The notes under the pieces: generated by a model | The model's database searches: none | The model's input: only the letters and a program-made list of their open reading frames with translations | Told to the model about the DNA's origin: nothing | Position numbers and translations under genes: made by a program | Source: Escherichia coli | GTDB taxonomy: Bacteria > Pseudomonadota > Gammaproteobacteria > Enterobacterales > Enterobacteriaceae | Direction: 5' to 3' (one strand) | DNA: 64,000 nucleotides | NCBI RefSeq assembly: GCF_013315695.1 | Contig: NZ_CP054353.1 | Part shown: in pieces, positions 1,450 to 19,051 of the stretch | How the letters are laid out: each line of letters begins with the position of its first letter | Position numbering within the stretch: the first letter of the stretch is position 1

Positions 1450-2727
1450 TTACTTGCTGCTAGCCATAGCAGGGGCGCTATCAGCAGTACGAATTTTTTG
1501 GAACAGCAAAAAGGTAAAGACGATCACCATGGCAAGCGCCGCCATGCCCATCAGCCACATATTGCGGTAGGCTTCTGCAGCGGGCAGGGTGTCTTGCCAG
1601 TAGCCGATAATCGGGTAAACGAAGACATCCGGCAGGAATCCAATCACCGAACAAATACCTACCGTGGTGCCCATAATGTAAGACGGTGTTCTCGCTTCGC
1701 CAGGGCAGGCCCAGTACAGCCCGCGTGAGGCGTAACAGGTGAATCCCAGCAGTAAAATCAGGCCAATCCCCATCGCGACCGATTGCGGGTTAGAGTTCGT
1801 GACGAGCAGGGCAGTTAACGCCAGCAAGCCGAGTACGGAAAGGATTTGGATCACGCGGGTAGGGGATTTCACTTTACTGTAGGTGGTGATAATGCCGCCA
1901 AGTGGACCACACAGCGCGCGGAATATTTTGTTGATCACAATCCCCATGTAGCTCGCCGCCACCAGCGACATGCCGTACATTTCGGTGAGATAGTTGGTGG
2001 AGTAACTCAGAATGGCGTAGATGGTGAAGACACCAAAAATCACCATGCTGCAATACCAGGTGGTGCTGATGCGCAAAACGGCCAGGATGTCGCTAAGCTG
2101 GAATGACTGTTTTTCTTCGTTATTGGTATTGCGCAGGTTGTTGTTATCGCTAACAAAAAACCAGCACAGAATCCCCAATAAAATGTAGACCACACTGTAG
2201 ATGATAATGACCGTTTTCAGGCTGGCGCTGTCATCCGGTGCAAAGCGAGAAAAGACCCACATGGTAAACACCGCCAGCGACATTACACCGACGCCGCGCA
2301 GCCCTTCCATCCAGCCCATAATTTTCCCTTGCTCGCTATGATCGCCCAGCAACGATGCGGCTTTAATCGACACCGACCACAGCATTAAAATCGTCGTTAT
2401 CGCAAAGGCGACCTGAATACAGAGCATTACCCACAGCGGTGGATAAGTTGCCATTAACAGACCCAGTAATCCGGTAATGATCATCGCGGAAGTAATCATT
2501 TTGCGATGTGAGAATTTATCGGCAATAACGCCACTGGGCGCATAAAGAATAATAGCTGCAATACCAAAGGTACTCATTATTAAACCTATCTCGGTATTGC
2601 TGAATCCCATAAATTTTGCTATGGGAATTTGATAAATATAACGTAAATAAGCCAGGTCGAAACTAACGCCGCCGCTAAAACTAATTATCGCGAGGGTTAT
2701 CCAACGGCGATATGAGTTGTGTTGCAT
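1450..2727 (-). CDS. yqcE: MFS-family transporter (425 aa)
   Basis: 425-aa ORF, highly hydrophobic with multiple predicted transmembrane segments; position between the sugar kinase and ygcW matches K-12 synteny. Confidence 0.8.
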   Translation of the reverse strand: MQHNSYRRWITLAIISFSGGVSFDLAYLRYIYQIPIAKFMGFSNTEIGLIMSTFGIAAIILYAPSGVIADKFSHRKMITSAMIITGLLGLLMATYPPLWVMLCIQVAFAITTILMLWSVSIKAASLLGDHSEQGKIMGWMEGLRGVGVMSLAVFTMWVFSRFAPDDSASLKTVIIIYSVVYILLGILCWFFVSDNNNLRNTNNEEKQSFQLSDILAVLRISTTWYCSMVIFGVFTIYAILSYSTNYLTEMYGMSLVAASYMGIVINKIFRALCGPLGGIITTYSKVKSPTRVIQILSVLGLLALTALLVTNSNPQSVAMGIGLILLLGFTCYASRGLYWACPGEARTPSYIMGTTVGICSVIGFLPDVFVYPIIGYWQDTLPAAEAYRNMWLMGMAALAMVIVFTFLLFQKIRTADSAPAMASSK

Positions 2728-2905
2728 ATCGTATTCCCATTTGTAATAGACAAAAAAAAGAGAAAAGTAAGCCGCCCTTTCAGGTGGATTACTTTTCTCA
2801 GGTCTCTAGTAATTGCAATAAGAAATAACATGGAAAGCAGTGGTGTTGTGTGAGAGTAGTCACGCTTCTGCTTTTTAAAATTATTTGATAATACGAATAT
2901 CACAC

Positions 2906-2921
2906 TGTGATTACGATCACA
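2906..2921. promoter_or_regulatory. Consensus cAMP-CRP binding site in the yqcE/ygcW divergent intergenic region
   Basis: TGTGATTACGATCACA reads as TGTGA-N6-TCACA, a perfect match to both CRP consensus half-sites. Confidence 0.55.
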
Positions 2922-2974
2922 TTAGCGCTTATGCCCTTATGCTAAAAATTATATCCAGTTACCAGAGATAATGA

Positions 2975-3022
2975 GAAAGGTAACTTCCCTCTCGCGGGGG
3001 AAGTTACCTTTCTTTTTTTTTT
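2975..3022 (+). terminator. Strong intrinsic terminator/attenuator hairpin 25 nt upstream of the ygcW start codon
   Basis: Perfect 15-bp stem GAAAGGTAACTTCCC / GGGAAGTTACCTTTC (2975-2989 and 2998-3012) with an 8-nt loop, followed by a run of 10 T (3013-3022). Upstream AGTTACC (2957-2963) could pair with GGTAACT in the 5' arm as an antiterminator. Confidence 0.5.
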
Positions 3023-3046
3023 GCCTTACGGAAATTGGAGCTAACT

Positions 3047-3832
3047 ATGTCAATCGAATCTCTCAATGCGTTCTCAATGGATTTTTTCTCCCTGAAAGGT
3101 AAAACAGCAATTGTTACCGGCGGGAATAGCGGTTTAGGCCAGGCATTTGCCATGGCGTTGGCCAAAGCTGGCGCAAATGTCTTTATCCCTAGCTTCGTCA
3201 AAGATAACGGCGAAACAAAGGAAATGATTGAAAAACAGGGTGTCGAAGTTGATTTTATGCAGGTGGATATCACCGCAGAAGGCGCGCCGCAGAAGATTAT
3301 CGCTGCCTGCTGTGAGCGCTTCGGTACCGTAGATATTCTGGTTAACAATGCCGGTATTTGTAAGCTGAATAAGGTGCTGGACTTCGGTCGTGCCGACTGG
3401 GACCCGATGATTGATGTGAACCTGACCGCCGCATTCGAGTTAAGCTACGAAGCGGCAAAAATTATGATCCCGCAGAAAAGCGGTAAAATTATTAATATCT
3501 GTTCATTGTTCTCTTACTTAGGTGGACAATGGTCACCTGCATATTCTGCAACTAAACATGCTCTTGCCGGATTCACCAAAGCTTATTGTGATGAACTAGG
3601 TCAATATAATATTCAGGTAAATGGTATTGCCCCTGGATATTACGCTACCGATATCACCCTGGCGACACGCAGTAATCCAGAAACCAATCAGCGCGTTCTT
3701 GATCATATTCCAGCAAACCGTTGGGGCGATACTCAGGATTTAATGGGCACAGCCATATTTCTCGCAAGTCCGGCATCGAATTATGTCAACGGACATTTAT
3801 TAGTGGTTGATGGCGGTTATTTAGTGCGCTAA
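3047..3832 (+). CDS. ygcW: Short-chain dehydrogenase/reductase (SDR), 261 aa
   Basis: ORF with TGGNSGLG Rossmann motif and YxxxK-type active-site region; start taken at the ATG preceded by a GGAG RBS (MSIESLNAF...). Confidence 0.85.
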   Translation: MSIESLNAFSMDFFSLKGKTAIVTGGNSGLGQAFAMALAKAGANVFIPSFVKDNGETKEMIEKQGVEVDFMQVDITAEGAPQKIIAACCERFGTVDILVNNAGICKLNKVLDFGRADWDPMIDVNLTAAFELSYEAAKIMIPQKSGKIINICSLFSYLGGQWSPAYSATKHALAGFTKAYCDELGQYNIQVNGIAPGYYATDITLATRSNPETNQRVLDHIPANRWGDTQDLMGTAIFLASPASNYVNGHLLVVDGGYLVR

Positions 3833-3901
3833 TCCATAACGGTGGTTTCTGTTTTCTCTTATTAATGATTATTCCATTTTTATTATCAGGAAGGAATTAC
3901 T

Positions 3902-5356
3902 ATGTCTTTATCTCGCGCAGCGATTGTCGACCAGCTAAAGGAAATTGTTGGTGCAGATCGCGTAATTACCGATGAAACAGTATTAAAGAAAAACAGTATT
4001 GACCGTTTTCGCAAATTTCCGGATATTCATGGCATTTATACTTTGCCTATTCCGGCAGCGGTCGTAAAACTCGGTTCCACAGAGCAAGTGTCCCGTGTGC
4101 TGAATTTTATGAATGCGCACAAAATTAACGGTGTGCCGCGTACCGGTGCTTCCGCTACCGAAGGTGGACTGGAAACCGTTGTGGAAAACTCGGTAGTGCT
4201 TGATGGCTCTGCAATGAATCAAATCATTAATATTGATATAGAGAATATGCAGGCGACGGCGCAATGTGGTGTTCCGCTGGAGGTGCTGGAAAACGCGTTG
4301 CGTGAAAAAGGTTACACCACGGGGCATTCACCGCAATCAAAACCGCTGGCGCAGATGGGCGGCCTGGTAGCAACCCGCAGTATCGGGCAGTTCTCCACAC
4401 TCTACGGCGCAATCGAAGATATGGTCGTTGGTCTGGAAGCAGTATTGGCTGATGGCACCGTAACACGTATTAAAAACGTGCCACGCCGCGCGGCTGGCCC
4501 GGACATTCGTCACATTATCATCGGCAACGAAGGTGCATTGTGCTATATCACTGAAGTAACAGTGAAAATCTTTAAGTTCACCCCGGAAAACAACCTCTTC
4601 TACGGCTATATCCTGGAAGATATGAAAACCGGCTTCAACATCCTGCGTGAAATCATGGTGGAAGGGTATCGTCCGTCGATTGCTCGTTTGTATGATGCTG
4701 AAGATGGCACCCAACACTTCACCCATTTTGCCGACGGCAAATGCGTGCTGATCTTTATGGCTGAAGGTAACCTTCGCATTGCGAAGGCGACGGGCGAAGG
4801 GATTGCTGAAATCGTGGCACGTTACCCGCAATGCCAGAGCGTGGACAGCAAGCTGATCGAAACCTGGTTTAACAACCTGAACTGGGGACCGGATAAAGTG
4901 GCTGCCGAACGTGTGCAGATCCTCAAAACCGGCAACATGGGCTTTACCACCGAAGTGTCCGGCTGCTGGAGCTGCATTCACGAAATCTACGAAAGCGTTA
5001 TTAACCGTATTCGTACCGAGTTCCCGCACGCCGACGACATCACCATGCTGGGCGGTCACTCCTCTCATAGCTATCAGAACGGCACCAACATGTACTTCGT
5101 CTACGACTACAACGTCGTTGACTGTAAGCCGGAAGAGGAAATCGACAAGTACCACAATCCGCTCAACAAAATCATCTGCGAAGAAACCATTCGCCTCGGC
5201 GGTTCGATGGTGCACCACCACGGTATTGGTAAACATCGCGTTCACTGGAGCAAACTGGAACACGGCAGCGCGTGGACGTTGCTGGAAGGGCTGAAAAAAC
5301 AGTTCGATCCTAACGGCATTATGAATACGGGTACTATCTATCCGATTGAAAAATAA
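3902..5356 (+). CDS. ygcU: FAD-linked oxidase/dehydrogenase (484 aa)
   Basis: 484-aa ORF with an FAD-binding PCMH-type N-terminal region; RBS AGGAAGG upstream. Confidence 0.85.
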   Translation: MSLSRAAIVDQLKEIVGADRVITDETVLKKNSIDRFRKFPDIHGIYTLPIPAAVVKLGSTEQVSRVLNFMNAHKINGVPRTGASATEGGLETVVENSVVLDGSAMNQIINIDIENMQATAQCGVPLEVLENALREKGYTTGHSPQSKPLAQMGGLVATRSIGQFSTLYGAIEDMVVGLEAVLADGTVTRIKNVPRRAAGPDIRHIIIGNEGALCYITEVTVKIFKFTPENNLFYGYILEDMKTGFNILREIMVEGYRPSIARLYDAEDGTQHFTHFADGKCVLIFMAEGNLRIAKATGEGIAEIVARYPQCQSVDSKLIETWFNNLNWGPDKVAAERVQILKTGNMGFTTEVSGCWSCIHEIYESVINRIRTEFPHADDITMLGGHSSHSYQNGTNMYFVYDYNVVDCKPEEEIDKYHNPLNKIICEETIRLGGSMVHHHGIGKHRVHWSKLEHGSAWTLLEGLKKQFDPNGIMNTGTIYPIEK

Positions 5357-5397
5357 TGTGTGAGGCAGCGTTCCGCGATGACGGGGCGTTGCCTTTT

Positions 5398-5419
5398 CGG
5401 CTTCTCAGGCGAGAAGCCG
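5398..5419 (+). terminator. Intercistronic hairpin between ygcU and ygcS (possible partial terminator)
   Basis: CGGCTTCTC-AGGC-GAGAAGCCG, a 9-bp GC-rich stem followed by TTCTTATT. Confidence 0.3.
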
Positions 5420-5449
5420 TTCTTATTACCGGACAATGAAGGGGTAAAG

Positions 5450-6787
5450 ATGAACACTTCACCGGTGCGAATGGATGATTTACCGCTTAACCGTTTTCAC
5501 TGTCGAATTGCTGCGCTCACTTTCGGCGCGCACCTGACCGACGGTTATGTTCTCGGCGTCATTGGTTACGCCATTATTCAGCTTACGCCCGCCATGCAAC
5601 TGACGCCGTTAATGGCGGGAATGATCGGCGGCTCGGCGCTCCTTGGTTTGTTTCTTGGCAGCCTGGTTCTTGGGTGGATCTCCGACCATATTGGTCGGCA
5701 AAAAATCTTCACCTTCAGCTTTTTGCTGATTACGCTCGCTTCGCTCTTGCAATTTTTTGCCACCACGCCAGAGCATCTTATTGGATTGCGCATTTTGATC
5801 GGCATTGGTCTGGGAGGCGATTACTCAGTCGGTCACACCTTGCTGGCTGAATTTTCCCCGCGCCGCCATCGCGGTATTTTGCTGGGCGCATTCAGTGTGG
5901 TGTGGACCGTAGGCTATGTGCTGGCAAGTATTGCCGGACATCACTTTATTACCGAAAGCCCGGAGGCCTGGCGCTGGCTGCTGGCATCAGCGGCGTTACC
6001 AGCCTTGCTGATTACGCTGCTACGTTGGGGCACGCCGGAATCGCCACGCTGGCTACTGCGCCAGGGGCGTTTTGCAGAAGCTCACGCTATCGTTCATCGC
6101 TATTTTGGCCCGCATGTTTTACTGGGCGATGAAGTGGCAACGGCGACCCATAAACACATCAAAACCTTGTTCTCTTCGCGCTACTGGCGGCGCACAGCGT
6201 TTAACAGCGTCTTCTTTGTCTGCCTCGTAATCCCATGGTTTGTGATTTATACCTGGCTGCCAACTATCGCCCAGACTATTGGACTGGAAGATGCGCTGAC
6301 TGCCAGCCTGATGCTTAATGCGTTGTTAATTGTTGGCGCGCTGCTGGGATTAGTTCTGACGCACCTGCTGGCACATCGCAAGTTTTTGCTGGGAAGTTTT
6401 TTGTTGCTGGCGGCAACGCTGGTAGTGATGGCCTGTTTGCCTTCCGGCAGTTCATTAACGCTGCTGCTTTTTGTTCTCTTCAGCACCACCATTTCGGCAG
6501 TCAGTAATCTGGTGGGCATTTTGCCTGCGGAAAGTTTTCCTACTGACATTCGCTCGCTGGGCGTCGGTTTTGCCACCGCCATGAGTCGGTTGGGGGCGGC
6601 GGTAAGTACTGGCCTGCTGCCGTGGGTGCTGGCGCAGTGGGGAATGCAAGCCACCTTATTGCTCCTGGCGGCAGTGTTGTTGGTTGGTTTTGTTGTGACC
6701 TGGCTATGGGCACCAGAAACCAAAGCACTCCCGCTGGTGGCGGCGGGAAATGTAGGAGGTGCGAATGAACATTCTGTTAGCGTTTAA
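5450..6787 (+). CDS. ygcS: MFS transporter (445 aa)
   Basis: ORF track frame 5360-6787; start placed at the ATG (MNTSPVRMDD...) with a GAAGGGG RBS, downstream of the hairpin; hydrophobic multi-pass protein. Confidence 0.8.
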   Translation: MNTSPVRMDDLPLNRFHCRIAALTFGAHLTDGYVLGVIGYAIIQLTPAMQLTPLMAGMIGGSALLGLFLGSLVLGWISDHIGRQKIFTFSFLLITLASLLQFFATTPEHLIGLRILIGIGLGGDYSVGHTLLAEFSPRRHRGILLGAFSVVWTVGYVLASIAGHHFITESPEAWRWLLASAALPALLITLLRWGTPESPRWLLRQGRFAEAHAIVHRYFGPHVLLGDEVATATHKHIKTLFSSRYWRRTAFNSVFFVCLVIPWFVIYTWLPTIAQTIGLEDALTASLMLNALLIVGALLGLVLTHLLAHRKFLLGSFLLLAATLVVMACLPSGSSLTLLLFVLFSTTISAVSNLVGILPAESFPTDIRSLGVGFATAMSRLGAAVSTGLLPWVLAQWGMQATLLLLAAVLLVGFVVTWLWAPETKALPLVAAGNVGGANEHSVSV

Positions 6788-7544
6788 AGCCGAACCGGAT
6801 GCCGGAATGCTGGCGGAAAAAGAGTGGCAGGCGGCGGCTCAGGGTAATATTGGACCAGATGTTTCGCTACTGCGAAGTTTACTCGGTGCTGATGAACAGG
6901 CTGCCGCCGCGCTGCTGTTGGCGCAGAGAAAAAACGGTACGTCGATGTCTTTAACCGCGTTGAGCATGGGGGATGAACGGGCGTTGCACTGGCTGCGCTA
7001 TCTCATGGCTCTTGGGTTTGAGGACGCTGTATTGCTGGAGACGGTGGCAGATCTGCGCTTTGCGCCGGAATTTGTCGCTCGCCATATTGCCGAATGGCAG
7101 CGTCAGAATCCGCTGGATCTGATAATTACCGGCTGCCAAAGCAGCGAAGGGCAGAATGGGCAAACGCCATTTTTGCTGGCGGAAATGCTGGGCTGGCCCT
7201 GCTTCACCCTGGTGGAGCGTTTTACTCTCGACGCGCCGTTTATCACCCTTGAACAGCGTACTGAACATGGGCTGCGCTGTTACCGGGTTCGCTTGCCTGC
7301 GGTGATTGCCGTGCGCCAGTGTGGTGAAGTGGCCTTGCCAGTACCGGGAATGCGCCAGCGAATGGCTGCGGGGAAAGCAGAAATTATCCGTAAAACTGTT
7401 GCTGTCGAATTGCCAGCGATGCAGTGTCTGCAACTGGCAAGAGCAGAGCAACGACGCGGAGCGACGCTGATTGATGGGCAAACGGTAGCAGAAAAAGCGC
7501 AAAAGCTATGGCAGAACTATTTACGCCAAAGGATGCAGCCATGA
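6765..7544 (+). CDS. ygcR: Electron-transfer flavoprotein beta subunit-like (FixA-like)
   Basis: ORF MNILLAFKAEPD...; overlaps the ygcS stop and the ygcQ start, consistent with translational coupling. Confidence 0.8.
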   Translation: MNILLAFKAEPDAGMLAEKEWQAAAQGNIGPDVSLLRSLLGADEQAAAALLLAQRKNGTSMSLTALSMGDERALHWLRYLMALGFEDAVLLETVADLRFAPEFVARHIAEWQRQNPLDLIITGCQSSEGQNGQTPFLLAEMLGWPCFTLVERFTLDAPFITLEQRTEHGLRCYRVRLPAVIAVRQCGEVALPVPGMRQRMAAGKAEIIRKTVAVELPAMQCLQLARAEQRRGATLIDGQTVAEKAQKLWQNYLRQRMQP

Positions 7545-8401
7545 ATATCGCAATTGTGACAATAAATCAGGAGAATGCCGCAATAGCGAGCTGGCTGGCA
7601 GAACAGGATTTCAGCGGTTGTACCCTGGCACACTGGCAGATTGAACCTCAGCCCGTAGTGGCGGAACAGGTGCTGGATGCGCTGGTGGAACAGTGGCAGC
7701 GAACGCCAGCGGACGTTGTTCTCTTTCCGCCGGGAACGTTTGGTGATGAACTGTCGACACGGCTGGCCTGGCGTTTACATGGTGCAAGCATCTGCCAGGT
7801 GACTTCGTTAGATATTTCAACCGTAAGCGTGCGCAAATCCCACTGGGGAAATGCGCTAACGGCGACGCTGCAAACAGAAAAACGCCCGCTATGCCTTTCC
7901 CTTGCCCGCCAGGCGGGAGCAGTGAAAAACGCCACATTGCCCTCTGGTATGCAGCAACTGAACATTGTCCCCGGCGCACTTCCCGACTGGCTGGTTAGCA
8001 CAGAGGATCTGAAAAATGTTACCCGTGACCCATTAGCTGAGGCCAGACGGGTGCTGGTGGTGGGGCAGGGCGGAGAGGCAGATAACCAGGAAATCGCTAT
8101 GCTGGCAGAAAAGCTGGGAGCCGAAGTGGGCTACAGTCGGGCGCGAGTAATGAACGGTGGCGTTGATGCCGAAAAAGTGATTGGTATTTCCGGACATCTG
8201 CTGGCACCTGAGGTGTGTATTGTTGTTGGCGCTTCTGGCGCAGCAGCGTTAATGGCGGGCGTATGCAATAGCAAGTTTGTGGTGGCGATTAATCATGACG
8301 CCAGCGCAGCGGTATTTTCACAGGCAGATGTTGGCGTGGTTGATGACTGGAAAGTGGTGCTGGAGGCAATGGTGACAAACATTCACGCAGATTGCCAATA
8401 A
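7541..8401 (+). CDS. ygcQ: Electron-transfer flavoprotein alpha subunit-like (FixB-like)
   Basis: ORF MNIAIVTINQ... with a C-terminal ETF-alpha FAD-binding region (GISGHLLAPEVCIVVGASGA). Confidence 0.8.
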   Translation: MNIAIVTINQENAAIASWLAEQDFSGCTLAHWQIEPQPVVAEQVLDALVEQWQRTPADVVLFPPGTFGDELSTRLAWRLHGASICQVTSLDISTVSVRKSHWGNALTATLQTEKRPLCLSLARQAGAVKNATLPSGMQQLNIVPGALPDWLVSTEDLKNVTRDPLAEARRVLVVGQGGEADNQEIAMLAEKLGAEVGYSRARVMNGGVDAEKVIGISGHLLAPEVCIVVGASGAAALMAGVCNSKFVVAINHDASAAVFSQADVGVVDDWKVVLEAMVTNIHADCQ

Positions 8402-8547: not shown

Positions 8548-9123
8548 TCAAAGCAATTTTTTCGCTAGCGTCCAGACCCCGGTATTCGTGGTGGAAAGCG
8601 CCACGACACCTGCGTTAATCGCATTACGCGCATCTTCTTCATCGCACACCAGCCCGCCAGCAATCAGCGGTTGGCGGATTTTCTCCGTCACCCAGCCCAG
8701 CACTTTGGGCATACAGCCAGGCAGGATCTCAATACAATCCGGATTCGATTGCGCAACTTGCTTATCAATGTTGTGAAACGAAATCGAATCAACAATAAAC
8801 AGGCGATGAATACAGAAAAAACCTTCCGCTCTTGCTGCTTTCAGCATTGAGGCTTTGGTACTGATAATGCCGTCCGCCTCGGTCACCAGTTTCAGAAACT
8901 GAATCACCACTTCTTTGTTCGATGCGCCTTCCAGCAAATCGACATGAATAAAGGCATATTTCCCGGCACTTTTAATCTTTTTGACGATATGACTGATGGT
9001 GCAGATATTGCCGTACAACACGGAAATAAACTGGCATTCAGAGTCGATTGCCAGTTGCAGGCTGGCATTATCTTTAACGGCAGCAATCACCGGATTCTGG
9101 CGGAGCAGGTGTAAGAGGGGCAT
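8548..9123 (-). CDS. ygcP: GlpP-family (glycerol-3-phosphate-responsive type) transcription antiterminator-like protein
   Basis: 191-aa ORF with the conserved SAGKxxFxHVDL region of the GlpP antiterminator family. Confidence 0.8.
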   Translation of the reverse strand: MPLLHLLRQNPVIAAVKDNASLQLAIDSECQFISVLYGNICTISHIVKKIKSAGKYAFIHVDLLEGASNKEVVIQFLKLVTEADGIISTKASMLKAARAEGFFCIHRLFIVDSISFHNIDKQVAQSNPDCIEILPGCMPKVLGWVTEKIRQPLIAGGLVCDEEDARNAINAGVVALSTTNTGVWTLAKKLL

Positions 9124-9139
9124 AAATTATCCTTATTAT

Positions 9140-9400
9140 TTATCCAAAACGGTAGGTGATGCCGAATCCGGAAGGCGGATAGCGCCACTGTTGTAGTGTT
9201 GATTCGTCGCACAGCAAACGGCAGGTGCCACACTCCAGGCAGCCGCGATAATCAACGCGTAAGTCACCTTCCGGTGTGAGCGAAAAAAGACCAGCCGGAC
9301 AAGCGTTAATCAACCGTTGTACCGTCTGGCGCTCAACGGAGTCAGCCGGAACAATGTGCGGCGCATCGGCAACGCGCCAGAGATTACGGGCTACAGACAT
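9140..9400 (-). CDS. ygcO: Ferredoxin-like protein (FixX-like), 86 aa
   Basis: ORF MSVARNLW... with a CxxCxxC cysteine cluster; overlaps the ygcN 3' end. Confidence 0.75.
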   Translation of the reverse strand: MSVARNLWRVADAPHIVPADSVERQTVQRLINACPAGLFSLTPEGDLRVDYRGCLECGTCRLLCDESTLQQWRYPPSGFGITYRFG

Positions 9401-10662
9401 CGAATACTCCTGACAACATCGCCCGCCAGATGCCACAGGCCGTGACGACGTAAATGACGCCAGAGCAACTGGCGCAGCGGCGGAACAGGTTTATCACCCT
9501 GATCCCATAAATCGCGGGAAATATCCTGCATTAACGCAGGCCACGCACGGTACCATCCAGGGCGTTGCAAAAGCGCCGGAACATGCTGATAACGTTGTAG
9601 AACATCCCATAGCAGGCTGCGCTCGACGTTGTGATGATAAAGCGCAAACAGATTTTGCGGCTCGCGGTGCTGGCAGGCGCTTATCAGCGTTTGTGCCGCC
9701 GCCTGCGCGCCAGTCAGCGCCATATCCATGCCGCGCACGGAAATTCCGGTATTGACGCAACTGCGCAACGCATCGCCCACCAGCAGCCAGCCGTTACCGG
9801 CGTATTGCACCGGCATACTGTGCAAGCCACCTTCTGGCACCAGATGCGCACCATACTCCAGTGATTCCGTGTTTTTGATAAGCGGGCGCACTGCCGGATG
9901 CGTTTTAAAGCGAGCCAGCAGCTCGCTTGCCGGAACACGACTTTGCGTAAGGGAAGAGAGCGGGCAAACAATCCCTAACGAGAGCGTTTGTTGATTAGTA
10001 TAAAGAAATGCGCCGCCGGGTAAGTCATCACAGATCCCGCCGCTGAACAGCAACGCTGCGCCTTCGTTATTCTCCAGATGAAAACGTTCTTCAATAGCGG
10101 ATGTTTCCAGCGACAGCACTTCTTTGATCCCCAACGCCATCGCTTCGCCAGCAGGACGAGTCACTAACCCGTGACGCTCAGCCAGGACGCTGTTGGCACC
10201 TTCTGCCAGCACCACATAACGGGCGCGGAGAATATCGTCACCACAAATGACACCACACACCCTGCCGTTTTCTTCATACAGCGCATCTACCGTCGCACCA
10301 GGGATGCATTCGACACCTTCTTTTTCGGCTTCGGCAACCAGCCACGGATCGAACCGTGCACGTAATACGCTCCAGGATTCACCGCCGGGCTGTAAGCTGG
10401 AAAACGTCGTTGCGCCATCCGGCGTTAGCAGAGAAAGACTTTCGTGAGTGATGCGTCGTTCAAGAGGCGCGGTCAGGTGAAACTGAGGGAGGAGTTCCGC
10501 GAGCGCCTGGGTATATAAACGCCCGCCGGAAAGGTTTTTACTGCCGGGAATTTCAGCGCGTTCCAGTAACAGAACGGATAAACCTGCCCGCGCGCAGCGT
10601 AAAGCACAAGCGGTGCCTGCTATACCGGCACCAATAATAATAATGTCGCAGTCGTCTTCCAT
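9391..10662 (-). CDS. ygcN: FAD-dependent oxidoreductase (FixC-like), 423 aa
   Basis: ORF MEDDCDIIIIGAGIAGTACA... carrying the GxGxxG dinucleotide-binding motif. Confidence 0.8.
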   Translation of the reverse strand: MEDDCDIIIIGAGIAGTACALRCARAGLSVLLLERAEIPGSKNLSGGRLYTQALAELLPQFHLTAPLERRITHESLSLLTPDGATTFSSLQPGGESWSVLRARFDPWLVAEAEKEGVECIPGATVDALYEENGRVCGVICGDDILRARYVVLAEGANSVLAERHGLVTRPAGEAMALGIKEVLSLETSAIEERFHLENNEGAALLFSGGICDDLPGGAFLYTNQQTLSLGIVCPLSSLTQSRVPASELLARFKTHPAVRPLIKNTESLEYGAHLVPEGGLHSMPVQYAGNGWLLVGDALRSCVNTGISVRGMDMALTGAQAAAQTLISACQHREPQNLFALYHHNVERSLLWDVLQRYQHVPALLQRPGWYRAWPALMQDISRDLWDQGDKPVPPLRQLLWRHLRRHGLWHLAGDVVRSIRCL

Positions 10663-10739: not shown

Positions 10740-11105
10740 TCATTCGCCGCGATAGATGCAACCTGCGGTGCAGGTTTCTTTCACCATCACCGCACTTAAC
10801 AGCGGAACAACCGGTTTAACCTGATCCCAAATCCATTTTGCTAAAACCTCGCTGGTCGGGTTTTCCAGGCCAGGAATATCATTGAGATAATAGTGATCGA
10901 GGCGATCATAGGTTGGTTTAAACGCTGCTTTCAGTTCAGCGAAATCGATAATCCAGCCCGTATGCGGATCGACTTCCCCGGTAATTTCCAGTCGCACCAT
11001 AAAGGAATGCCCGTGCAGGCGACCACATTTATGTCCTTCCGGGACGTGTGGTAAGCGGTGAGCGGCTTCGAAGGTGAAATCTTTAAATAACGTGGTGGAC
11101 ATCAT
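10740..11105 (-). CDS. queD: 6-carboxy-5,6,7,8-tetrahydropterin synthase (queuosine biosynthesis)
   Basis: 121-aa [21 protein letters not shown]...CGRLHGHSF..., the PTPS family zinc-binding signature. Confidence 0.85.
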
Positions 11106-11420: not shown

Positions 11421-13220
11421 ATGACGACACAGGTCTCACCTTCCGCGTTGCTTCCGTTGAACCCGGAGCAACTGGCACGCCTTCAGGCGGCCACGACCGA
11501 TTTAACTCCCACCCAGCTTGCCTGGGTTTCTGGCTATTTCTGGGGCGTGCTCAACCAGCAGCCTGCTGCGCTTGCAGCGACGCCAGCGCCCGCCGCAGAA
11601 ATGCCGGGTATAACTATTATCTCCGCCTCGCAAACCGGCAATGCGCGCCGGGTTGCTGAAGCATTACGCGATGATTTATTGGCAGCAAAACTGAACGTTA
11701 AGCTGGTGAACGCGGGCGACTATAAATTCAAACAAATCGCCAGCGAAAAACTGCTTATCGTGGTGACGTCAACGCAAGGAGAAGGGGAACCGCCGGAAGA
11801 AGCCGTCGCGCTGCATAAGTTCCTGTTCTCCAAAAAAGCGCCAAAGCTGGAAAACACCGCGTTTGCCGTGTTTAGCCTCGGCGATAGCTCTTATGAATTT
11901 TTCTGCCAGTCCGGGAAAGATTTTGACAGTAAGCTGGCGGAACTGGGCGGTGAACGCCTGCTTGACCGTGTCGATGCCGATGTTGAATATCAGGCCGCTG
12001 CCAGCGAGTGGCGCGCCCGCGTGGTTGATGCGCTTAAATCGCGTGCGCCTGTCGCGGCACCTTCGCAATCCGTCGCTACTGGCGCGGTAAATGAAATCCA
12101 CACCAGCCCGTACAGCAAAGACGCGCCGCTGGTGGCGAGCCTCTCTGTTAACCAGAAAATTACCGGGCGTAACTCTGAAAAAGACGTTCGCCATATCGAA
12201 ATTGACTTAGGTGACTCGGGCCTGCGTTACCAGCCGGGTGACGCGCTGGGTGTCTGGTATCAGAACGATCCGGCACTGGTGAAAGAACTTGTCGAACTGC
12301 TGTGGCTGAAAGGCGATGAACCTGTCACCGTCGAGGGCAAAACGTTGCCTCTGAACGAAGCGCTACAGTGGCACTTCGAACTGACCGTCAACACCGCCAA
12401 CATTGTTGAGAACTATGCCACGCTTACCCGCAGCGAAACGCTGCTGCCGCTGGTGGGCGATAAAGCGAAGTTACAGCATTACGCCGCGACCACGCCGATT
12501 GTCGACATGGTGCGTTTCTCTCCGGCGCAACTGGATGCCGAAGCGCTGATTAATCTGCTGCGCCCGCTGACCCCGCGCCTGTATTCCATCGCCTCCTCGC
12601 AGGCGGAAGTCGAGAACGAAGTACACGTCACCGTTGGCGTGGTGCGTTACGACGTGGAAGGCCGCGCCCGTGCCGGTGGTGCCTCCAGCTTCCTCGCGGA
12701 CCGCGTGGAAGAAGAGGGCGAAGTCCGCGTATTTATCGAACATAACGACAACTTCCGCCTGCCAGCCAACCCAGAAACCCCGGTGATTATGATTGGCCCA
12801 GGCACCGGCATCGCGCCGTTTCGCGCCTTTATGCAGCAGCGCGCCGCTGACGAAGCGCCGGGTAAAAACTGGTTGTTCTTTGGCAACCCGCACTTTACGG
12901 AAGATTTCCTCTACCAGGTGGAGTGGCAGCGCTACGTCAAAGAGGGCGTGCTGACGCGTATCGATCTTGCCTGGTCGCGCGACCAAAAAGAAAAAGTTTA
13001 TGTACAAGACAAACTGCGCGAACAGGGCGCAGAGCTGTGGCGCTGGATCAATGACGGTGCCCACATTTATGTCTGCGGCGACGCTAATCGCATGGCGAAA
13101 GACGTTGAACAGGCACTTCTGGAAGTGATTGCCGAATTTGGTGGCATGGACACCGAAGCGGCGGATGAATTTTTAAGTGAGCTGCGCGTAGAGCGCCGTT
13201 ATCAGCGAGATGTCTACTAA
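11421..13220 (+). CDS. cysJ: Sulfite reductase [NADPH] flavoprotein alpha component
   Basis: 599-aa [21 protein letters not shown]... with flavodoxin and FAD/NADPH-binding domains; operon with cysI and cysH. Confidence 0.95.
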
Positions 13221-15796: not shown

Positions 15797-15906
15797 GCGA
15801 GCAGCATTCCTGATTTTAAACGTGAACGTCGTTGGAAGAATTAACAGGTATAGAATGGCGTTGGGTGCTTGAGGCTGTCTGGCGTTAAGCATTCGCGAGG
15901 TTCCAG

Positions 15907-16008
15907 ATGGACAAAAGCCCCAGGCGATATTTCTATCAACCTGAGGCCAGCGTTCGAACCCAAACAATTCGAATGTTAGTCTCTTCTTTGCAGGGAGGCA
16001 AGACATGC
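15907..16008 (+). CDS. mok-like upstream reading frame, translationally coupled to hok
   Basis: 33-codon ORF ([15 protein letters not shown]...GGKTC) with a GAGG RBS; its TGA stop overlaps the hok ATG (ATGCTGA), the arrangement typical of hok/mok loci. Confidence 0.35.
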
Positions 16009-16157
16009 TGACAAAATATGCCCTTGTGGCAATCATAGTGCTGTGTTTTACAGTACTGGGATTCACGCTGATGGTAGGCGACTCGTTGTGTGAGTTGAGT
16101 ATCAGAGAACGTGGTATGGAGTTTAAGGCGGTTCTCGCTTACGAATCGAAGAAGTAG
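16005..16157 (+). CDS. hokX: Hok/Gef-family type I toxin (50 aa), apparently intact
   Basis: [50 protein letters not shown]: single TM helix followed by the conserved SLCE...AYES motif of Hok/Gef; GGAGG RBS; a GC hairpin (CGCGGGG-GTAAAA-CCCCGCG, 16164-16183) lies just downstream. Symbol by position between cysH and cas3. Confidence 0.7.
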
Positions 16158-16199: not shown

Positions 16200-16351
16200 T
16201 TTGGTCTCCTGCACCCTTTTTTAATTTATATTGTTTATGTGAATATTATGCCTATGTTTATTATTCATATATATTACGGATGAAAATTATTTGATTATTC
16301 ATAATGTAAATATTTTATTGAACGATATATATCACAGATAATTTTTAATAT
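16200..16351 (+). promoter_or_regulatory. AT-rich cas3 upstream/promoter region
   Basis: About 150 bp of very AT-rich DNA immediately upstream of cas3; in K-12 the cas promoters are H-NS silenced (established knowledge, not verified for this sequence). Confidence 0.4.
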
Positions 16352-19051
16352 ATGCGTAAATATCCTTTAAGTTTACTGAAGGATAAAAATATTGTGACTT
16401 TTTTTGATTTCTGGGGAAAAACCCGACGCGGCGAGAAAGACGGGGGCGACGACTATCACCTTCTTTGCTGGCATTCGCTGGATGTAGCCGCGATGGGCTA
16501 TTTAATGGTTAAAAGCAATTGCTTCGGACTGGCTGACTATTTTCGTCAATTAGGTTTCGCTGACACGGAGCTGGCAGCACAATTTTTCGCCTGGCTGCTG
16601 TGCTGGCACGATATTGGAAAATTTGCCCGCTCTTTTCAGCAACTTTACCTGCACCCACAACTCAAGGTTCCGGAAGGCGCAAGAAAGAATTACGAAAAGA
16701 TCTCTCATTCAACGCTGGGCTACTGGTTGTGGAACCATTATTTAAGTGAATGTCAGGAGTTGCTTCCTTCATCTTCACTCTCTCCGCGCAAACTTAAACG
16801 GGTGATGGAGATGTGGATGCCCATGACTACCGGGCATCATGGTCGACCCCCTGAGCGTATGGATGAACTGGATAATTTTCTGCCTGAAGACAAAGGTGCC
16901 GCACGAGATTTTCTCCTTGCAATCAAGGTACTGTTTCCGCTCATAGAGATCCCCACATTCTGGGATGATGACGAGGGCGTTGAACTTATAAAACAACTTT
17001 CCTGGTATATCTCTGCAACCGTCGTACTTGCAGACTGGACGGGATCGTCAACGCGATATTTTCCACGCGTCGCACAGACAATGGATATTGAAGATTACTG
17101 GCAGAAAACTTTAGTTCAGGCTCAAAACGCCTTAACCGTCTTTCCTCCAAAAGCAGAAAGCGCGCCTTTCACCGGAATTAATACGCTGTTTCCTTTTATT
17201 GAGAATCCGACACCGCTACAGCAAAAGGTGCTGGATCTGGATATCAGCCAGCCGGGACCACAGTTATTTATTCTGGAGGATGTAACCGGCGCAGGTAAAA
17301 CAGAAGCGGCGCTTATCCTGGCGCACAGGTTGATGGCTGCGGGGAAAGCGCAGGGTTTGTTTTTTGGCCTGCCAACAATGGCAACGGCCAATGCCATGTA
17401 CGATCGACTGGTCAAAACCTGGCTTGCTTTCTATTCGCCAGAGTCCCGCCCCAGCCTGGTGCTGGCACACAGTGCCCGAACATTAATGGACCGCTTTAAT
17501 GAATCACTCTGGTCCGGTGATTTAGTCGGGTCAGAAGAACCGGATGAACAAACGTTCAGTCAGGGATGTGCGGCCTGGTTTGCCGACAGTAACAAGAAGG
17601 CGCTACTGGCTGAAATTGGCGTCGGCACGCTGGATCAGGCGATGATGGCTGTGATGCCGTTCAAACATAATAATCTGCGGCTTCTGGGACTGAGTAACAA
17701 AATCCTGCTGGCTGATGAGATCCATGCCTGTGACGCTTACATGTCATGCATTCTTGAAGGGCTGATCGAGCGGCAGGCGCGTGGCGGAAACAGCGTCATT
17801 TTGCTTTCTGCCACGTTATCTCAACAGCAGCGCGACAAACTCGTTGCTGCCTTTGCGCGTGGTATAGAGGGCCAGCAAGAAGCTCCGTTCCTGGAAAAGG
17901 ATGATTACCCCTGGCTGACGCACGTTACGAAATCCGATGTGCATTCACACCGGGTAGCGACGCGCAAAGACGTTGAGCGCAGCGTGAGTGTGGGTTGGCT
18001 TCATAGCGAACAAGAGTGTATTGCGCGTATCGAATCGGCGGTAAGTCAGGGGAAATGTATCGCCTGGATCCGAAATTCTGTCGATGACGCCATCCAGGTT
18101 CATCGTCAGTTACTTGCCCGCGGCGTCATTCCTGCTTCCAGCCTTTCACTTTTTCATAGCCGCTTTGCTTTTAGCGATCGCCAGCGAATTGAAACGGAGA
18201 CGCTGGCACGCTTTGGTAAAGAAGACTGTTCACAGCGTGCCGGAAAAGTCCTCATTTGTACTCAAGTCCTGGAGCAGAGCGTTGACTGCGACCTGGACGA
18301 AATGATTTCCGACCTTGCCCCTGTTGATTTACTGATCCAGCGAGCAGGGCGATTACAGCGACATATCCGCGATATGAATGGCCAGTTAAAGCGTGACGGT
18401 AAAGACGAGCGTCACCCTCCTGAATTGCTGATTCTGGCCCCCGTCTGGGACGACTCTCCGGGTGACGAATGGTTTGGCAGTGCCATGCGTAACAGTGCAT
18501 TTGTCTATCCCGATCATGGGCGAATCTGGCTGACGCAGCGTGTGCTGCGTGAGCAAGGTGCTATTCAGATGCCACACTCAGCCCGGCTTCTGATTGAATC
18601 AGTCTACGGTGAGGACGTAGTAATGCCGGAAGGGTTTGCCCGCAGCGAGCAGGAGCAAGTGGGCAAATATTACTGCGATCGCGCAATGGCTAAAAAGTTT
18701 GTACTGAACTTCAGGCCCGGCTATGCCGCCAATATCAACGATTACCTCCCGGAAAAACTGTCGACACGTCTGGCTGAAGAGTCTGTTTCCCTGTGGCTGG
18801 CTACCTGTATTGACGGTGTGGTGAAGCCTTATGCCACAGGTGCACACGCATGGGAAATGAGCGTTGTCAGAGTGCGCCGAAGCTGGTGGAAAAAACATCG
18901 GGATGAGTTTGCTTTACTGGAAGGGGATGCGTTCAGGCAGTGGTGCGTTGAACAGCGGCATGATCCGGAGATGGCAAACGTGATTTTAGTCACCGATGAC
19001 GAAAGTTGTGGGTATTCGGCTACGGAGGGATTGATTGGCAAGGTTGGTTGA
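16352..19051 (+). CDS. cas3: Type I-E Cas3 HD-nuclease/helicase
   Basis: 899-aa ORF with an N-terminal HD region (HSLDVAA...HDIGKF), Walker A GAGKTEAA and DExH box LLADEIHACD; start could instead be the GTG 14 codons downstream. Confidence 0.9.
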   Translation: MRKYPLSLLKDKNIVTFFDFWGKTRRGEKDGGDDYHLLCWHSLDVAAMGYLMVKSNCFGLADYFRQLGFADTELAAQFFAWLLCWHDIGKFARSFQQLYLHPQLKVPEGARKNYEKISHSTLGYWLWNHYLSECQELLPSSSLSPRKLKRVMEMWMPMTTGHHGRPPERMDELDNFLPEDKGAARDFLLAIKVLFPLIEIPTFWDDDEGVELIKQLSWYISATVVLADWTGSSTRYFPRVAQTMDIEDYWQKTLVQAQNALTVFPPKAESAPFTGINTLFPFIENPTPLQQKVLDLDISQPGPQLFILEDVTGAGKTEAALILAHRLMAAGKAQGLFFGLPTMATANAMYDRLVKTWLAFYSPESRPSLVLAHSARTLMDRFNESLWSGDLVGSEEPDEQTFSQGCAAWFADSNKKALLAEIGVGTLDQAMMAVMPFKHNNLRLLGLSNKILLADEIHACDAYMSCILEGLIERQARGGNSVILLSATLSQQQRDKLVAAFARGIEGQQEAPFLEKDDYPWLTHVTKSDVHSHRVATRKDVERSVSVGWLHSEQECIARIESAVSQGKCIAWIRNSVDDAIQVHRQLLARGVIPASSLSLFHSRFAFSDRQRIETETLARFGKEDCSQRAGKVLICTQVLEQSVDCDLDEMISDLAPVDLLIQRAGRLQRHIRDMNGQLKRDGKDERHPPELLILAPVWDDSPGDEWFGSAMRNSAFVYPDHGRIWLTQRVLREQGAIQMPHSARLLIESVYGEDVVMPEGFARSEQEQVGKYYCDRAMAKKFVLNFRPGYAANINDYLPEKLSTRLAEESVSLWLATCIDGVVKPYATGAHAWEMSVVRVRRSWWKKHRDEFALLEGDAFRQWCVEQRHDPEMANVILVTDDESCGYSATEGLIGKVG

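Follow-up and report, generated by a model that had tools for sequence, protein, structure and literature searches.

Twin terminator leaders with tandem GAGA boxes between yqcE and ygcW of Escherichia coli, candidate RNA targets of the GlpP-family protein YgcP

The yqcE/ygcW intergenic region of Escherichia coli is located in a 64,000-nucleotide stretch of contig NZ_CP054353.1 (assembly GCF_013315695.1), which is the window analysed here and the source of all coordinates unless stated otherwise. The region is 319 bp in length and contains two mirror-image control modules, each with a CRP site, a predicted promoter and a short leader with an intrinsic terminator. One leader precedes ygcW on the plus strand (the W leader); the other, missed by the preliminary description of this DNA, precedes yqcE on the minus strand (the E leader). 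The reading that we consider probable is that both leaders are subject to antitermination of the GlpP type, dependent on YgcP, a protein encoded in the same gene cluster. The reality of the terminators and of the CRP site is practically certain. The preliminary description had proposed a single antitermination-controlled operon beginning with ygcW; antitermination is supported by the present analysis, but the controlled unit comprises two divergent operons, since yqcE–ygcE also has a leader. The elements of the two leaders are as follows.

2955–3022, plus strand: W leader RNA, which runs from the predicted start through the whole U tract; covariance model R1 gives 86 bits at 2947–3022
2957–2963, plus strand: element a, AGUUACC, 5′ strand of the putative antiterminator helix
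2964–2978, plus strand: loop AGAGAUAAUGAGAAA with two GAG(A) boxes (2964–2968 and 2973–2978), the proposed YgcP recognition site
2979–2985, plus strand: element b, GGUAACU, common to the putative antiterminator (with a) and the terminator 5′ arm
2973–3022, plus strand: intrinsic terminator with a 19-bp stem (2973–2991/2996–3014), a loop UCGC of 4 nt and T10 at 3013–3022
2752–2815, minus strand: E leader RNA; R1 gives 81 bits at 2752–2824(−)
2814–2808, minus strand: element a′, AAUUACU, 5′ strand of the putative antiterminator
2807–2794, minus strand: loop AGAGACCUGAGAAA between a′ and b′
2793–2787, minus strand: element b′, AGUAAUC, which pairs with a′
2799–2760, minus strand: stem of the E terminator, with a T8 run at 2759–2752

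The W hairpin has 19 pairs, among them 16 contiguous Watson–Crick pairs and two G–U pairs, and the first two T of the T10 run fall inside the stem. It had been described as a perfect 15-bp hairpin with a tail of ten T; the tail was borne out, but the stem is longer, begins at 2973 and includes the G–U pairs. The hairpin folds with about −32 to −40 kcal/mol, the z-score being −6.1 to −6.9, and none of 200 shuffles was as stable; for the 101-nt W region, the value is −40 kcal/mol versus −20.5 ± 3.2 for the shuffles (z = −6.1). Element a (AGTTACC in the DNA, 2957–2963) is, as first noticed, the exact complement of GGTAACT (2979–2985) in the terminator 5′ arm, and the 7-bp a–b helix is the minimum-energy fold of the nascent 39-nt W RNA. 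Box 2 (2973–2978) doubles as the base of the terminator stem. In the minus-strand reading, the E leader has the order AAUUACU-AGAGACCUGAGAAA-AGUAAUCCACC...GGCGGCUUACUUUUCUC-U8, and its fold has an energy of −20.7 kcal/mol (z = −4.0). The terminator and the nascent a–b helix differ widely in stability, with −31.8 versus −6.2 kcal/mol in the W leader and −20.7 versus −1.4 kcal/mol in the E leader; such a gap is expected if a protein must stabilise the antiterminator.

Both terminators end about 25–30 nt before the start codon. The distance of 25 nt between the end of the T run (3022) and the ygcW ATG (3047) was confirmed, and the earlier view that the hairpin is too near this ATG for an independent promoter agrees with the lack of a plus-strand promoter-like site between the two; GGAG occurs upstream of the ATG, at 3037–3040. 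A leader peptide was considered and rejected: the ATG at 2971 begins a short open reading frame, but many orthologous leaders have AAG, CAG, CTG or GGA in its place, and it is not preceded by a Shine–Dalgarno sequence. A search of the whole window at Rfam gathering scores found only sok and no family at the ygcW and yqcE leaders, while a permissive search of 2700–3100 returned hairpin-driven chance matches of 14–25 bits, with thresholds of 39–229 bits.

Mapping of 3′ ends by Term-seq had been suggested in the preliminary description, and the published atlas (Adams 2021, PMC7815308; strain K-12 in lysogeny broth (LB) at an optical density of 0.4), the ends of which were transferred to the window via the K-12 sequence, contains in vivo 3′ ends in both 5′ untranslated regions (5′ UTRs), so that the proposal in effect withstands the refutation by missing 3′ ends that was named in that description. 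The end at K-12 position 2900311(−), corresponding to 3008(+) in the window, has 40,640 reads, lies 38 nt before ygcW and has a Rho score of 0.50 and an intrinsic score of 15.8. The end at 2900556(+), corresponding to 2763(−), has 1,557 reads, lies 36 nt before yqcE and has scores of 0.61 and 11.4, respectively. Both ends are insensitive to bicyclomycin and hence Rho-independent; in the atlas, they are classed as 'orphan' and bear no note of a regulatory element (PMC7815308). The short leader RNAs accumulate in LB, and the terminator wins by default.

Comparative material was obtained with a scan for YgcP, using one genome per species, which yielded 64 loci belonging to Escherichia, Citrobacter, Klebsiella, Serratia, Rahnella, Pantoea, Erwinia, Budvicia, Listeria, Bacillus, Thalassobacillus and two Clostridia. 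These loci were gathered by searching for the ygcP gene, and the co-occurrence of the motif is to be read in the direction from protein to motif only. The constant core of nearly all 64 loci is the linkage of ygcP with ygcW, ygcU and yqcE; in Listeria, the genes form a single operon ygcU-ygcP-yqcE-ygcW. The upstream regions of ygcW and yqcE carry the leader in every enterobacterial case examined. With covariance model R1, built on 91 distinct leaders (enterobacterial and from Thalassobacillus), the window and 49 other Enterobacterales loci gave exactly two strong matches each (60–86 bits), and Thalassobacillus gave one; a third copy is absent from the window, including the regions before ygcN and ygcP. 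In a BLAST search, E. coli genomes contain the leader at a median of two sites each; no site is on a plasmid or coincides with an annotated RefSeq feature. Weaker R1 matches score 22–31 bits. In five Listeria species they immediately precede ygcU, Bacillus sp. DNRA2 has them upstream of both ygcU and ygcW, and in Lachnoclostridium and Faecalibacterium they immediately follow the glpP homologue. The genes following the R1 match in the two Clostridia encode glycerol-3-phosphate-oxidase/GlpA-like enzymes.

The GAG of box 1 and the GAGAAA of box 2 are invariant in the 91 distinct leaders; when the Listeria and Bacillus copies are added, GAG (box 1) and GAGA (box 2) are still invariant. Box 1 is unpaired in both folds and yet invariant, which implies sequence-specific recognition. 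The hairpin and the antiterminator pairing, both pointed out earlier for E. coli, are kept in orthologous loci with compensatory changes. In the terminator, 97.7% of alignment cells pair, versus 60–68% after sliding of the partner, and double changes are seen at six pairs. In the antiterminator, the corresponding figures for the model alignment are 88.6% versus 15–54%, with double changes in three of the six core pairs. Both the MAFFT and the covariance-model alignments misplace a 3–4-nt insertion in about ten yqcE-type leaders (about nine rows), which makes 88.6% a conservative value. In a second count, where the elements were anchored by sequence only (TTRC and GAGNNA) in 57 distinct leaders, all six core pairs are kept in 51 of the 57. 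Pair a2–b6 is GC in 44 leaders, AU in 11 and broken in two; a5–b3 is AU in 53 and GC in four, with none broken; a7–b1 is UA in 43, CG in ten and CA in four. The a2–b6 change divides the yqcE-type from the ygcW-type leaders of Enterobacteriaceae. The b6 base of the yqcE type forms a mismatch in the terminator and a pair in the antiterminator, so this covariation belongs to the antiterminator alone. The a5–b3 change arose at least twice, in one enterobacterial metagenome-assembled genome and in the Listeria/Bacillus group. The support that covariation lends to the antiterminator helix appears good but not overwhelming.

In Limnobaculum allomyrinae and Budvicia (loci L036, 16257–16334(−) and 16574–16651(+), and L041, 16312–16389(−) and 16588–16665(+)), both leaders of a genome have one and the same terminator hairpin; such identical inverted copies suggest gene conversion between the leaders. 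In Limnobaculum eriocheiris (locus L032, 13878–13959), the leaders are collapsed to one bidirectional hairpin, and neither promoters nor CRP sites remain. The interval between the yqcE terminator and the start codon contains an insertion of about 130 bp in Citrobacter youngae (locus L010, about 16320–16470) and Klebsiella spallanzanii (locus L012, about 12666–12816), which we take to resemble an enterobacterial repetitive intergenic consensus/intergenic repeat unit (ERIC/IRU) repeat.

YgcP matches PF04309 (G3P_antiterm) with residues 12–184 over model positions 1–173 of 173 (E = 2.8e-62), and this full-length match upholds its earlier assignment to the GlpP family. It also matches the structure of Listeria GlpP (3KTS; E = 4.6e-28) with about 35% identity over the aligned stretch, and is 46–49% identical to clostridial homologues. 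To our knowledge, YgcP is the only GlpP-family protein of E. coli. No protein of the cluster matched a BglG-type family, YgcP matching PF04309 only, and in a comparison by eye the leaders did not match the ribonucleic antiterminator (RAT) bound by BglG-type proteins.

In B. subtilis, deletion of glpP abolishes expression from the glpD leader, and the glpD 5′ UTR confers glycerol control on foreign promoters (PMC9604022). The canonical glpP-glpF-glpK-glpD loci used for comparison were those of Priestia megaterium, Lysinibacillus and Paenibacillus, not the B. subtilis leader sequences. Five of the six glpF and glpD leaders examined open with AAGUUAAUA (locus L067, 7600–7700 and 10170–10265, and loci L070 and L071), the variant in Lysinibacillus glpF being AAGUUCAUA. 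A short helix around two GAG-type boxes, of which the second continues as the 5′ arm of a strong terminator, is present in both Priestia leaders (glpF and glpD), in Paenibacillus glpF and in Lysinibacillus glpD; the remaining two of the six are looser. The boxes read GGAGAAUNGGAGA in the clearest cases, those of Priestia glpF and glpD and of Paenibacillus glpF; R1 gives 22.6 bits on the Priestia glpD leader. The Listeria monocytogenes glpP locus has no adjacent glp genes and was uninformative. On this comparison, the ygc leaders are a variant of the leader type that GlpP acts on. The ygc-type leaders open with (A/C)AGUUAC, and a 5′-terminal AGUUA is common to the ygc and glp leaders. This common start may matter for binding or for mRNA stability, the latter since GlpP has been reported to stabilise glpD mRNA.

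Initiation at both leaders appears to be controlled by CRP. The features upstream of the leaders are listed below.

2906–2921, centre 2913.5, no strand assigned: CRP site 1, TGTGATTACGATCACA, perfect consensus, at −41.5 relative to a ygcW start predicted at 2955
2849–2864, centre 2856.5, no strand assigned: CRP-like site 2, TGTGAGAGTAGTCACG, one mismatch, at −41.5 relative to a yqcE start predicted at 2815
2940–2948, plus strand: predicted extended −10 of the ygcW promoter, TGcTAAAAA, read from the sequence; predicted start 2955–2957
2830–2822, minus strand: predicted extended −10 of the yqcE promoter, TGtTATTTC; predicted start 2814–2816

The perfect consensus at 2906–2921, TGTGATTACGATCACA, had been noted in the preliminary description with the same coordinates; it is the sole perfect TGTGA-N6-TCACA across the window, where the CRP core with at most one mismatch occurs five times versus 1.8 expected. 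The centres of the two sites are 57 bp apart. Site 1 was forecast in 2007 by PhyloScan, is covered by a CRP peak in chromatin immunoprecipitation sequencing of enterotoxigenic E. coli H10407 (PMC4287617), and appears as a 'novel CRP site' in a Footprint-seq preprint of 2026 (PMC12871828), where its in vitro Kd is 1.7 nM; at least one of the two sites is bound by CRP. TGnTA is found within 20 nt upstream of 50 of 51 ygcW leaders and 46 of 47 yqcE leaders (96/98 in total). A CRP-like site lies 41.5–44.5 nt upstream of the first leader base in 50 of 51 ygcW and all 47 yqcE leaders; on the yqcE side, a site with zero or one mismatch is found at 41.5–43.5 nt in 47/47 loci. The spacing of the CRP site to the TGnTA −10 and to the leader start is compatible with −41.5 in 97 of the 98 leaders, the starts being predicted. 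From these predicted starts, we infer promoters of the class II CRP type, activated by CRP. The leader element begins at +2 or +3 of the predicted transcript on both sides, and the Cappable-seq supplements have no start-site entry for these leaders.

A minus-strand promoter-like site, TTCTCA-18-TATAAT (2977–2948, 10 of 12 matches), lies inside the ygcW leader DNA and faces yqcE; its K-12 version is the yqcE promoter in the list of Shimada 2014. Its −35 is simply the conserved GAGAA box read in reverse complement, and its −10 is unconserved in other genera, so that the site is probably a fortuitous by-product of that box.

The proposed mechanism would operate as follows. The first leader bases, RUUACY (element a), can pair with RGUAAY (element b) 14–18 nt downstream, closing a loop with the two GAG(A) boxes; box 2 and element b also make up the 5′ arm of the strong intrinsic terminator. 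In the default state, the terminator forms and transcription stops early. On induction, ligand-loaded YgcP would bind the GAGA boxes and the a–b hairpin on the nascent RNA and hold the 5′ arm away from the 3′ arm, allowing RNA polymerase to read into ygcWUSRQ and yqcE-ygcE. The ligand may be a small phosphorylated metabolite arising from uptake by YqcE or YgcS and the action of the kinase YgcE, by analogy with GlpK and glycerol-3-phosphate. It is probably phosphorylated and, to judge from the gene content, is probably other than glycerol-3-phosphate; that it is a phospho-sugar is a guess. CRP with cyclic AMP would then provide catabolite control of initiation, and YgcP substrate-specific control of elongation.

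Several observations weigh against this mechanism. The a–b helix is short and weak, with a C·A mismatch at a7–b1 in four distinct leaders and a mismatch at a2–b6 in two. The covariation amounts to about four or five independent events, because one change is often inherited by many sequences, and the shuffle controls ignore relatedness. The ygcW and yqcE start sites are predicted only. The two Term-seq ends fall 4–5 nt inside the 3′ arm of the stem, outside the U tract; our guess is exonuclease trimming through the A–U-rich stem base, which is assumed here, and degradation of an alternative conformer is possible as well. The ygcP gene itself belongs to a separate convergent operon, ygcNOP, in which R1 finds no leader motif, and what links YgcP with the leader RNAs is co-occurrence and family analogy only. 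Finally, Serratia microhaemolytica (locus L045) has a ygcP homologue at 7431–7988 and no motif in its 18-kb locus, even with the filters off; this locus also lacks ygcW, ygcU and yqcE.

Three other explanations of the leaders have to be weighed. The short transcripts could be functional in themselves, as CRP-activated trans-acting small RNAs (sRNAs), or the leaders could be constitutive attenuators; read-through would then be unregulated and YgcP irrelevant. The W leader RNA is indeed abundant in LB, with 40,640 reads at an end classed as 'orphan', its stable hairpin and long U tail are akin to the 3′ ends of Hfq-binding sRNAs, and leader-derived sRNAs are documented (PMC7815308). However, ygcW and yqcE are absent from the searchable sRNA prediction tables derived from RIL-seq (ligation and sequencing of interacting RNAs), the two homologous copies stand directly before two operons of one pathway with no space for a separate promoter, homologous leaders occur at the starts of Firmicutes operons, and a covarying fold that competes with the terminator is needless for an sRNA. 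This explanation is unlikely, and a trans role of the leader RNA alongside the cis role is possible.

The leaders might also be protein-independent riboswitches, in which the a–b hairpin with its GAGA loop binds a metabolite, perhaps through a pseudoknot of this loop with UUUCUC of the 3′ arm, while YgcP acts elsewhere. A 5′-UTR element that is conserved in sequence and structure and overlaps a terminator in the manner of an expression platform would suit a riboswitch, and small hairpin or pseudoknot aptamers exist. The putative aptamer, however, measures merely about 29 nt, all Rfam matches are far below gathering scores, the motif adjoins a GlpP-family gene in every complete locus examined (the loci having been gathered by that gene), and the layout recurs in glp leaders, whose read-through needs the GlpP protein. 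The riboswitch is, in our estimation, the least probable of the three explanations. Control of read-through by another factor, such as an RNA-binding protein or a general elongation factor, with YgcP as an enzyme-like pathway protein of the triose-phosphate isomerase (TIM)-barrel type, is very unlikely too. RNA binding has been demonstrated for one family member only, B. subtilis GlpP, and ygcP is transcribed together with ygcN and ygcO, both redox genes, away from the leaders; but the motif and a GlpP homologue co-occur across very different gene orders and phyla, and no other regulator gene is conserved in the cluster. YgcP-dependent antitermination is retained as the preferred reading.

Gene coordinates were taken from the RefSeq annotation of strain MSB1_4I, which is 100% identical to the window over 2400–3400; compared with most other E. 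coli, this segment shows 95–99% identity, and it is chromosomal. The genes of the cluster are given below.

Cut off at the window start, minus strand: ygcE, FGGY kinase, downstream of yqcE in the second regulated unit
1450–2727, minus strand: yqcE, major facilitator superfamily (MFS) transporter
3047–3832, plus strand: ygcW, KduD-like short-chain dehydrogenase/reductase (NCBIfam)
3902–5356, plus strand: ygcU, GlcD-like flavin adenine dinucleotide (FAD) oxidase (NCBIfam), AGPS/GlcD-like
5378–6787, plus strand: ygcS, MFS transporter (NCBIfam)
6765–7544, plus strand: ygcR, electron-transfer flavoprotein (ETF) beta subunit (NCBIfam)
7541–8401, plus strand: ygcQ, ETF alpha subunit (NCBIfam)
3047–8401, plus strand: presumed regulated operon ygcW-ygcU-ygcS-ygcR-ygcQ, with intergenic gaps of at most 69 nt or overlapping genes
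8548–9123, minus strand: ygcP, GlpP family (PF04309), proposed trans-acting antiterminator
9140–9400, minus strand: ygcO, FixX-like (NCBIfam, where YgcN and YgcO are FixC- and FixX-like)
9391–10662, minus strand: ygcN, FixC-like (NCBIfam, as for ygcO)
10740–11105, minus strand: queD (RefSeq annotation)

Three further features were noticed around the cluster. The sok antitoxin RNA (Rfam RF01794) at 15863–16020(+) scores 111 bits versus a gathering score of 59, and its position downstream of the cys genes indicates a hok/sok-type toxin–antitoxin locus. The MSB1_4I annotation places an array of clustered regularly interspaced short palindromic repeats (CRISPR) in the queE–ygcE interval (locus L001, 5087–5908), just beyond the window and upstream of ygcE, and a copy of IS4 in the eno–ygcG interval.

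The closest known system is that of B. subtilis GlpP, which acts on glpD, glpFK and glpTQ and belongs to the same protein family over its full length. Its antitermination depends on glycerol-3-phosphate; the ygc genes are not glp genes. In both systems, the promoter is immediately followed by an intrinsic terminator within the 5′ UTR, a short helix brackets tandem (G)GAGA boxes that lie in or before the terminator 5′ arm, and AGUUA stands at the 5′ end. The differences are that the catabolite layer is formed by CcpA in the glp operons of Bacillus and by CRP in the ygc cluster, that the ygc host, unlike Bacillus, is a Proteobacterium, that the a–b helix has 6–7 bp compared with 3–5 bp in the glp leaders, that the boxes are AGAGA and GAGAAA instead of GGAGA, and that the two ygc leaders diverge around two CRP sites.

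Antitermination by BglG, SacY and LicT at RAT sites likewise involves a weak antiterminator hairpin that overlaps the terminator 5′ arm, needs a protein and serves substrate-specific catabolic control; the bgl operon is the existing example of BglG antitermination in E. coli. Those proteins, however, consist of a co-antiterminator domain and a regulation domain (CAT-PRD) that is phosphorylated by the phosphotransferase system (PTS), while YgcP is a barrel-like PF04309 protein without it; the RAT sequence is unrelated, and recognition in the ygc leaders seems, unlike that of RAT, to be based on repeated GAGA boxes in the loop. HutP (NAG) and TRAP ((G/U)AG) recognise short purine-rich repeats, and the invariant GAG boxes suggest the same style, although both proteins are unrelated to YgcP, there are only two boxes in the ygc leaders, and TRAP promotes termination. 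As for initiation, galP1 is a class II CRP promoter with an extended −10. The ygc promoters are similar to it in the CRP centre at −41.5 from the predicted start, overlapping the −35, and in the TGn before the −10, but unlike galP1 they are two back-to-back promoters, each with its own CRP site and with centres 57 bp apart.

Taken singly, the CRP site, both 3′ ends and the assignment of YgcP to its family are already published or present in databases. In the literature, no paper was found that connects them or describes the twin leaders, nothing relevant was found on YgcP or the ygc genes, and the word GlpP is absent from a 2025 review of RNA-binding antiterminators. With the ygc system, a candidate of the GlpP type is put forward for the first time in E. 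coli and in Proteobacteria. A broader proposal, to which we give a little less than an even chance, is that the helix with two GAG(A) boxes over a terminator is the general RNA target of the whole GlpP family, in Firmicutes as well as Enterobacterales. The ygc genes would then represent a subfamily with a switched ligand, YgcP responding to some phosphorylated metabolite that is not glycerol-3-phosphate and controlling an ETF-linked catabolic pathway, and YgcP would constitute the second class of RNA-binding catabolic antiterminators in E. coli after BglG.

The ygc/yqc cluster is among the larger gene blocks of E. coli K-12 without a known function. If the leaders are YgcP-dependent, the pathway's substrate or inducer could be screened for directly with a ygcW′ read-through reporter. 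The regulator family lacks an Rfam model, and the comparison supplies a concrete RNA motif for it, a helix with tandem GAGA boxes. Two class II CRP promoters in mirror-image arrangement, both gated by one antiterminator, would make up a small reusable AND-gate. If the proposed mechanism is true, two 'orphan' Term-seq 3′ ends are explained and antitermination of the GlpP type operates in Proteobacteria.

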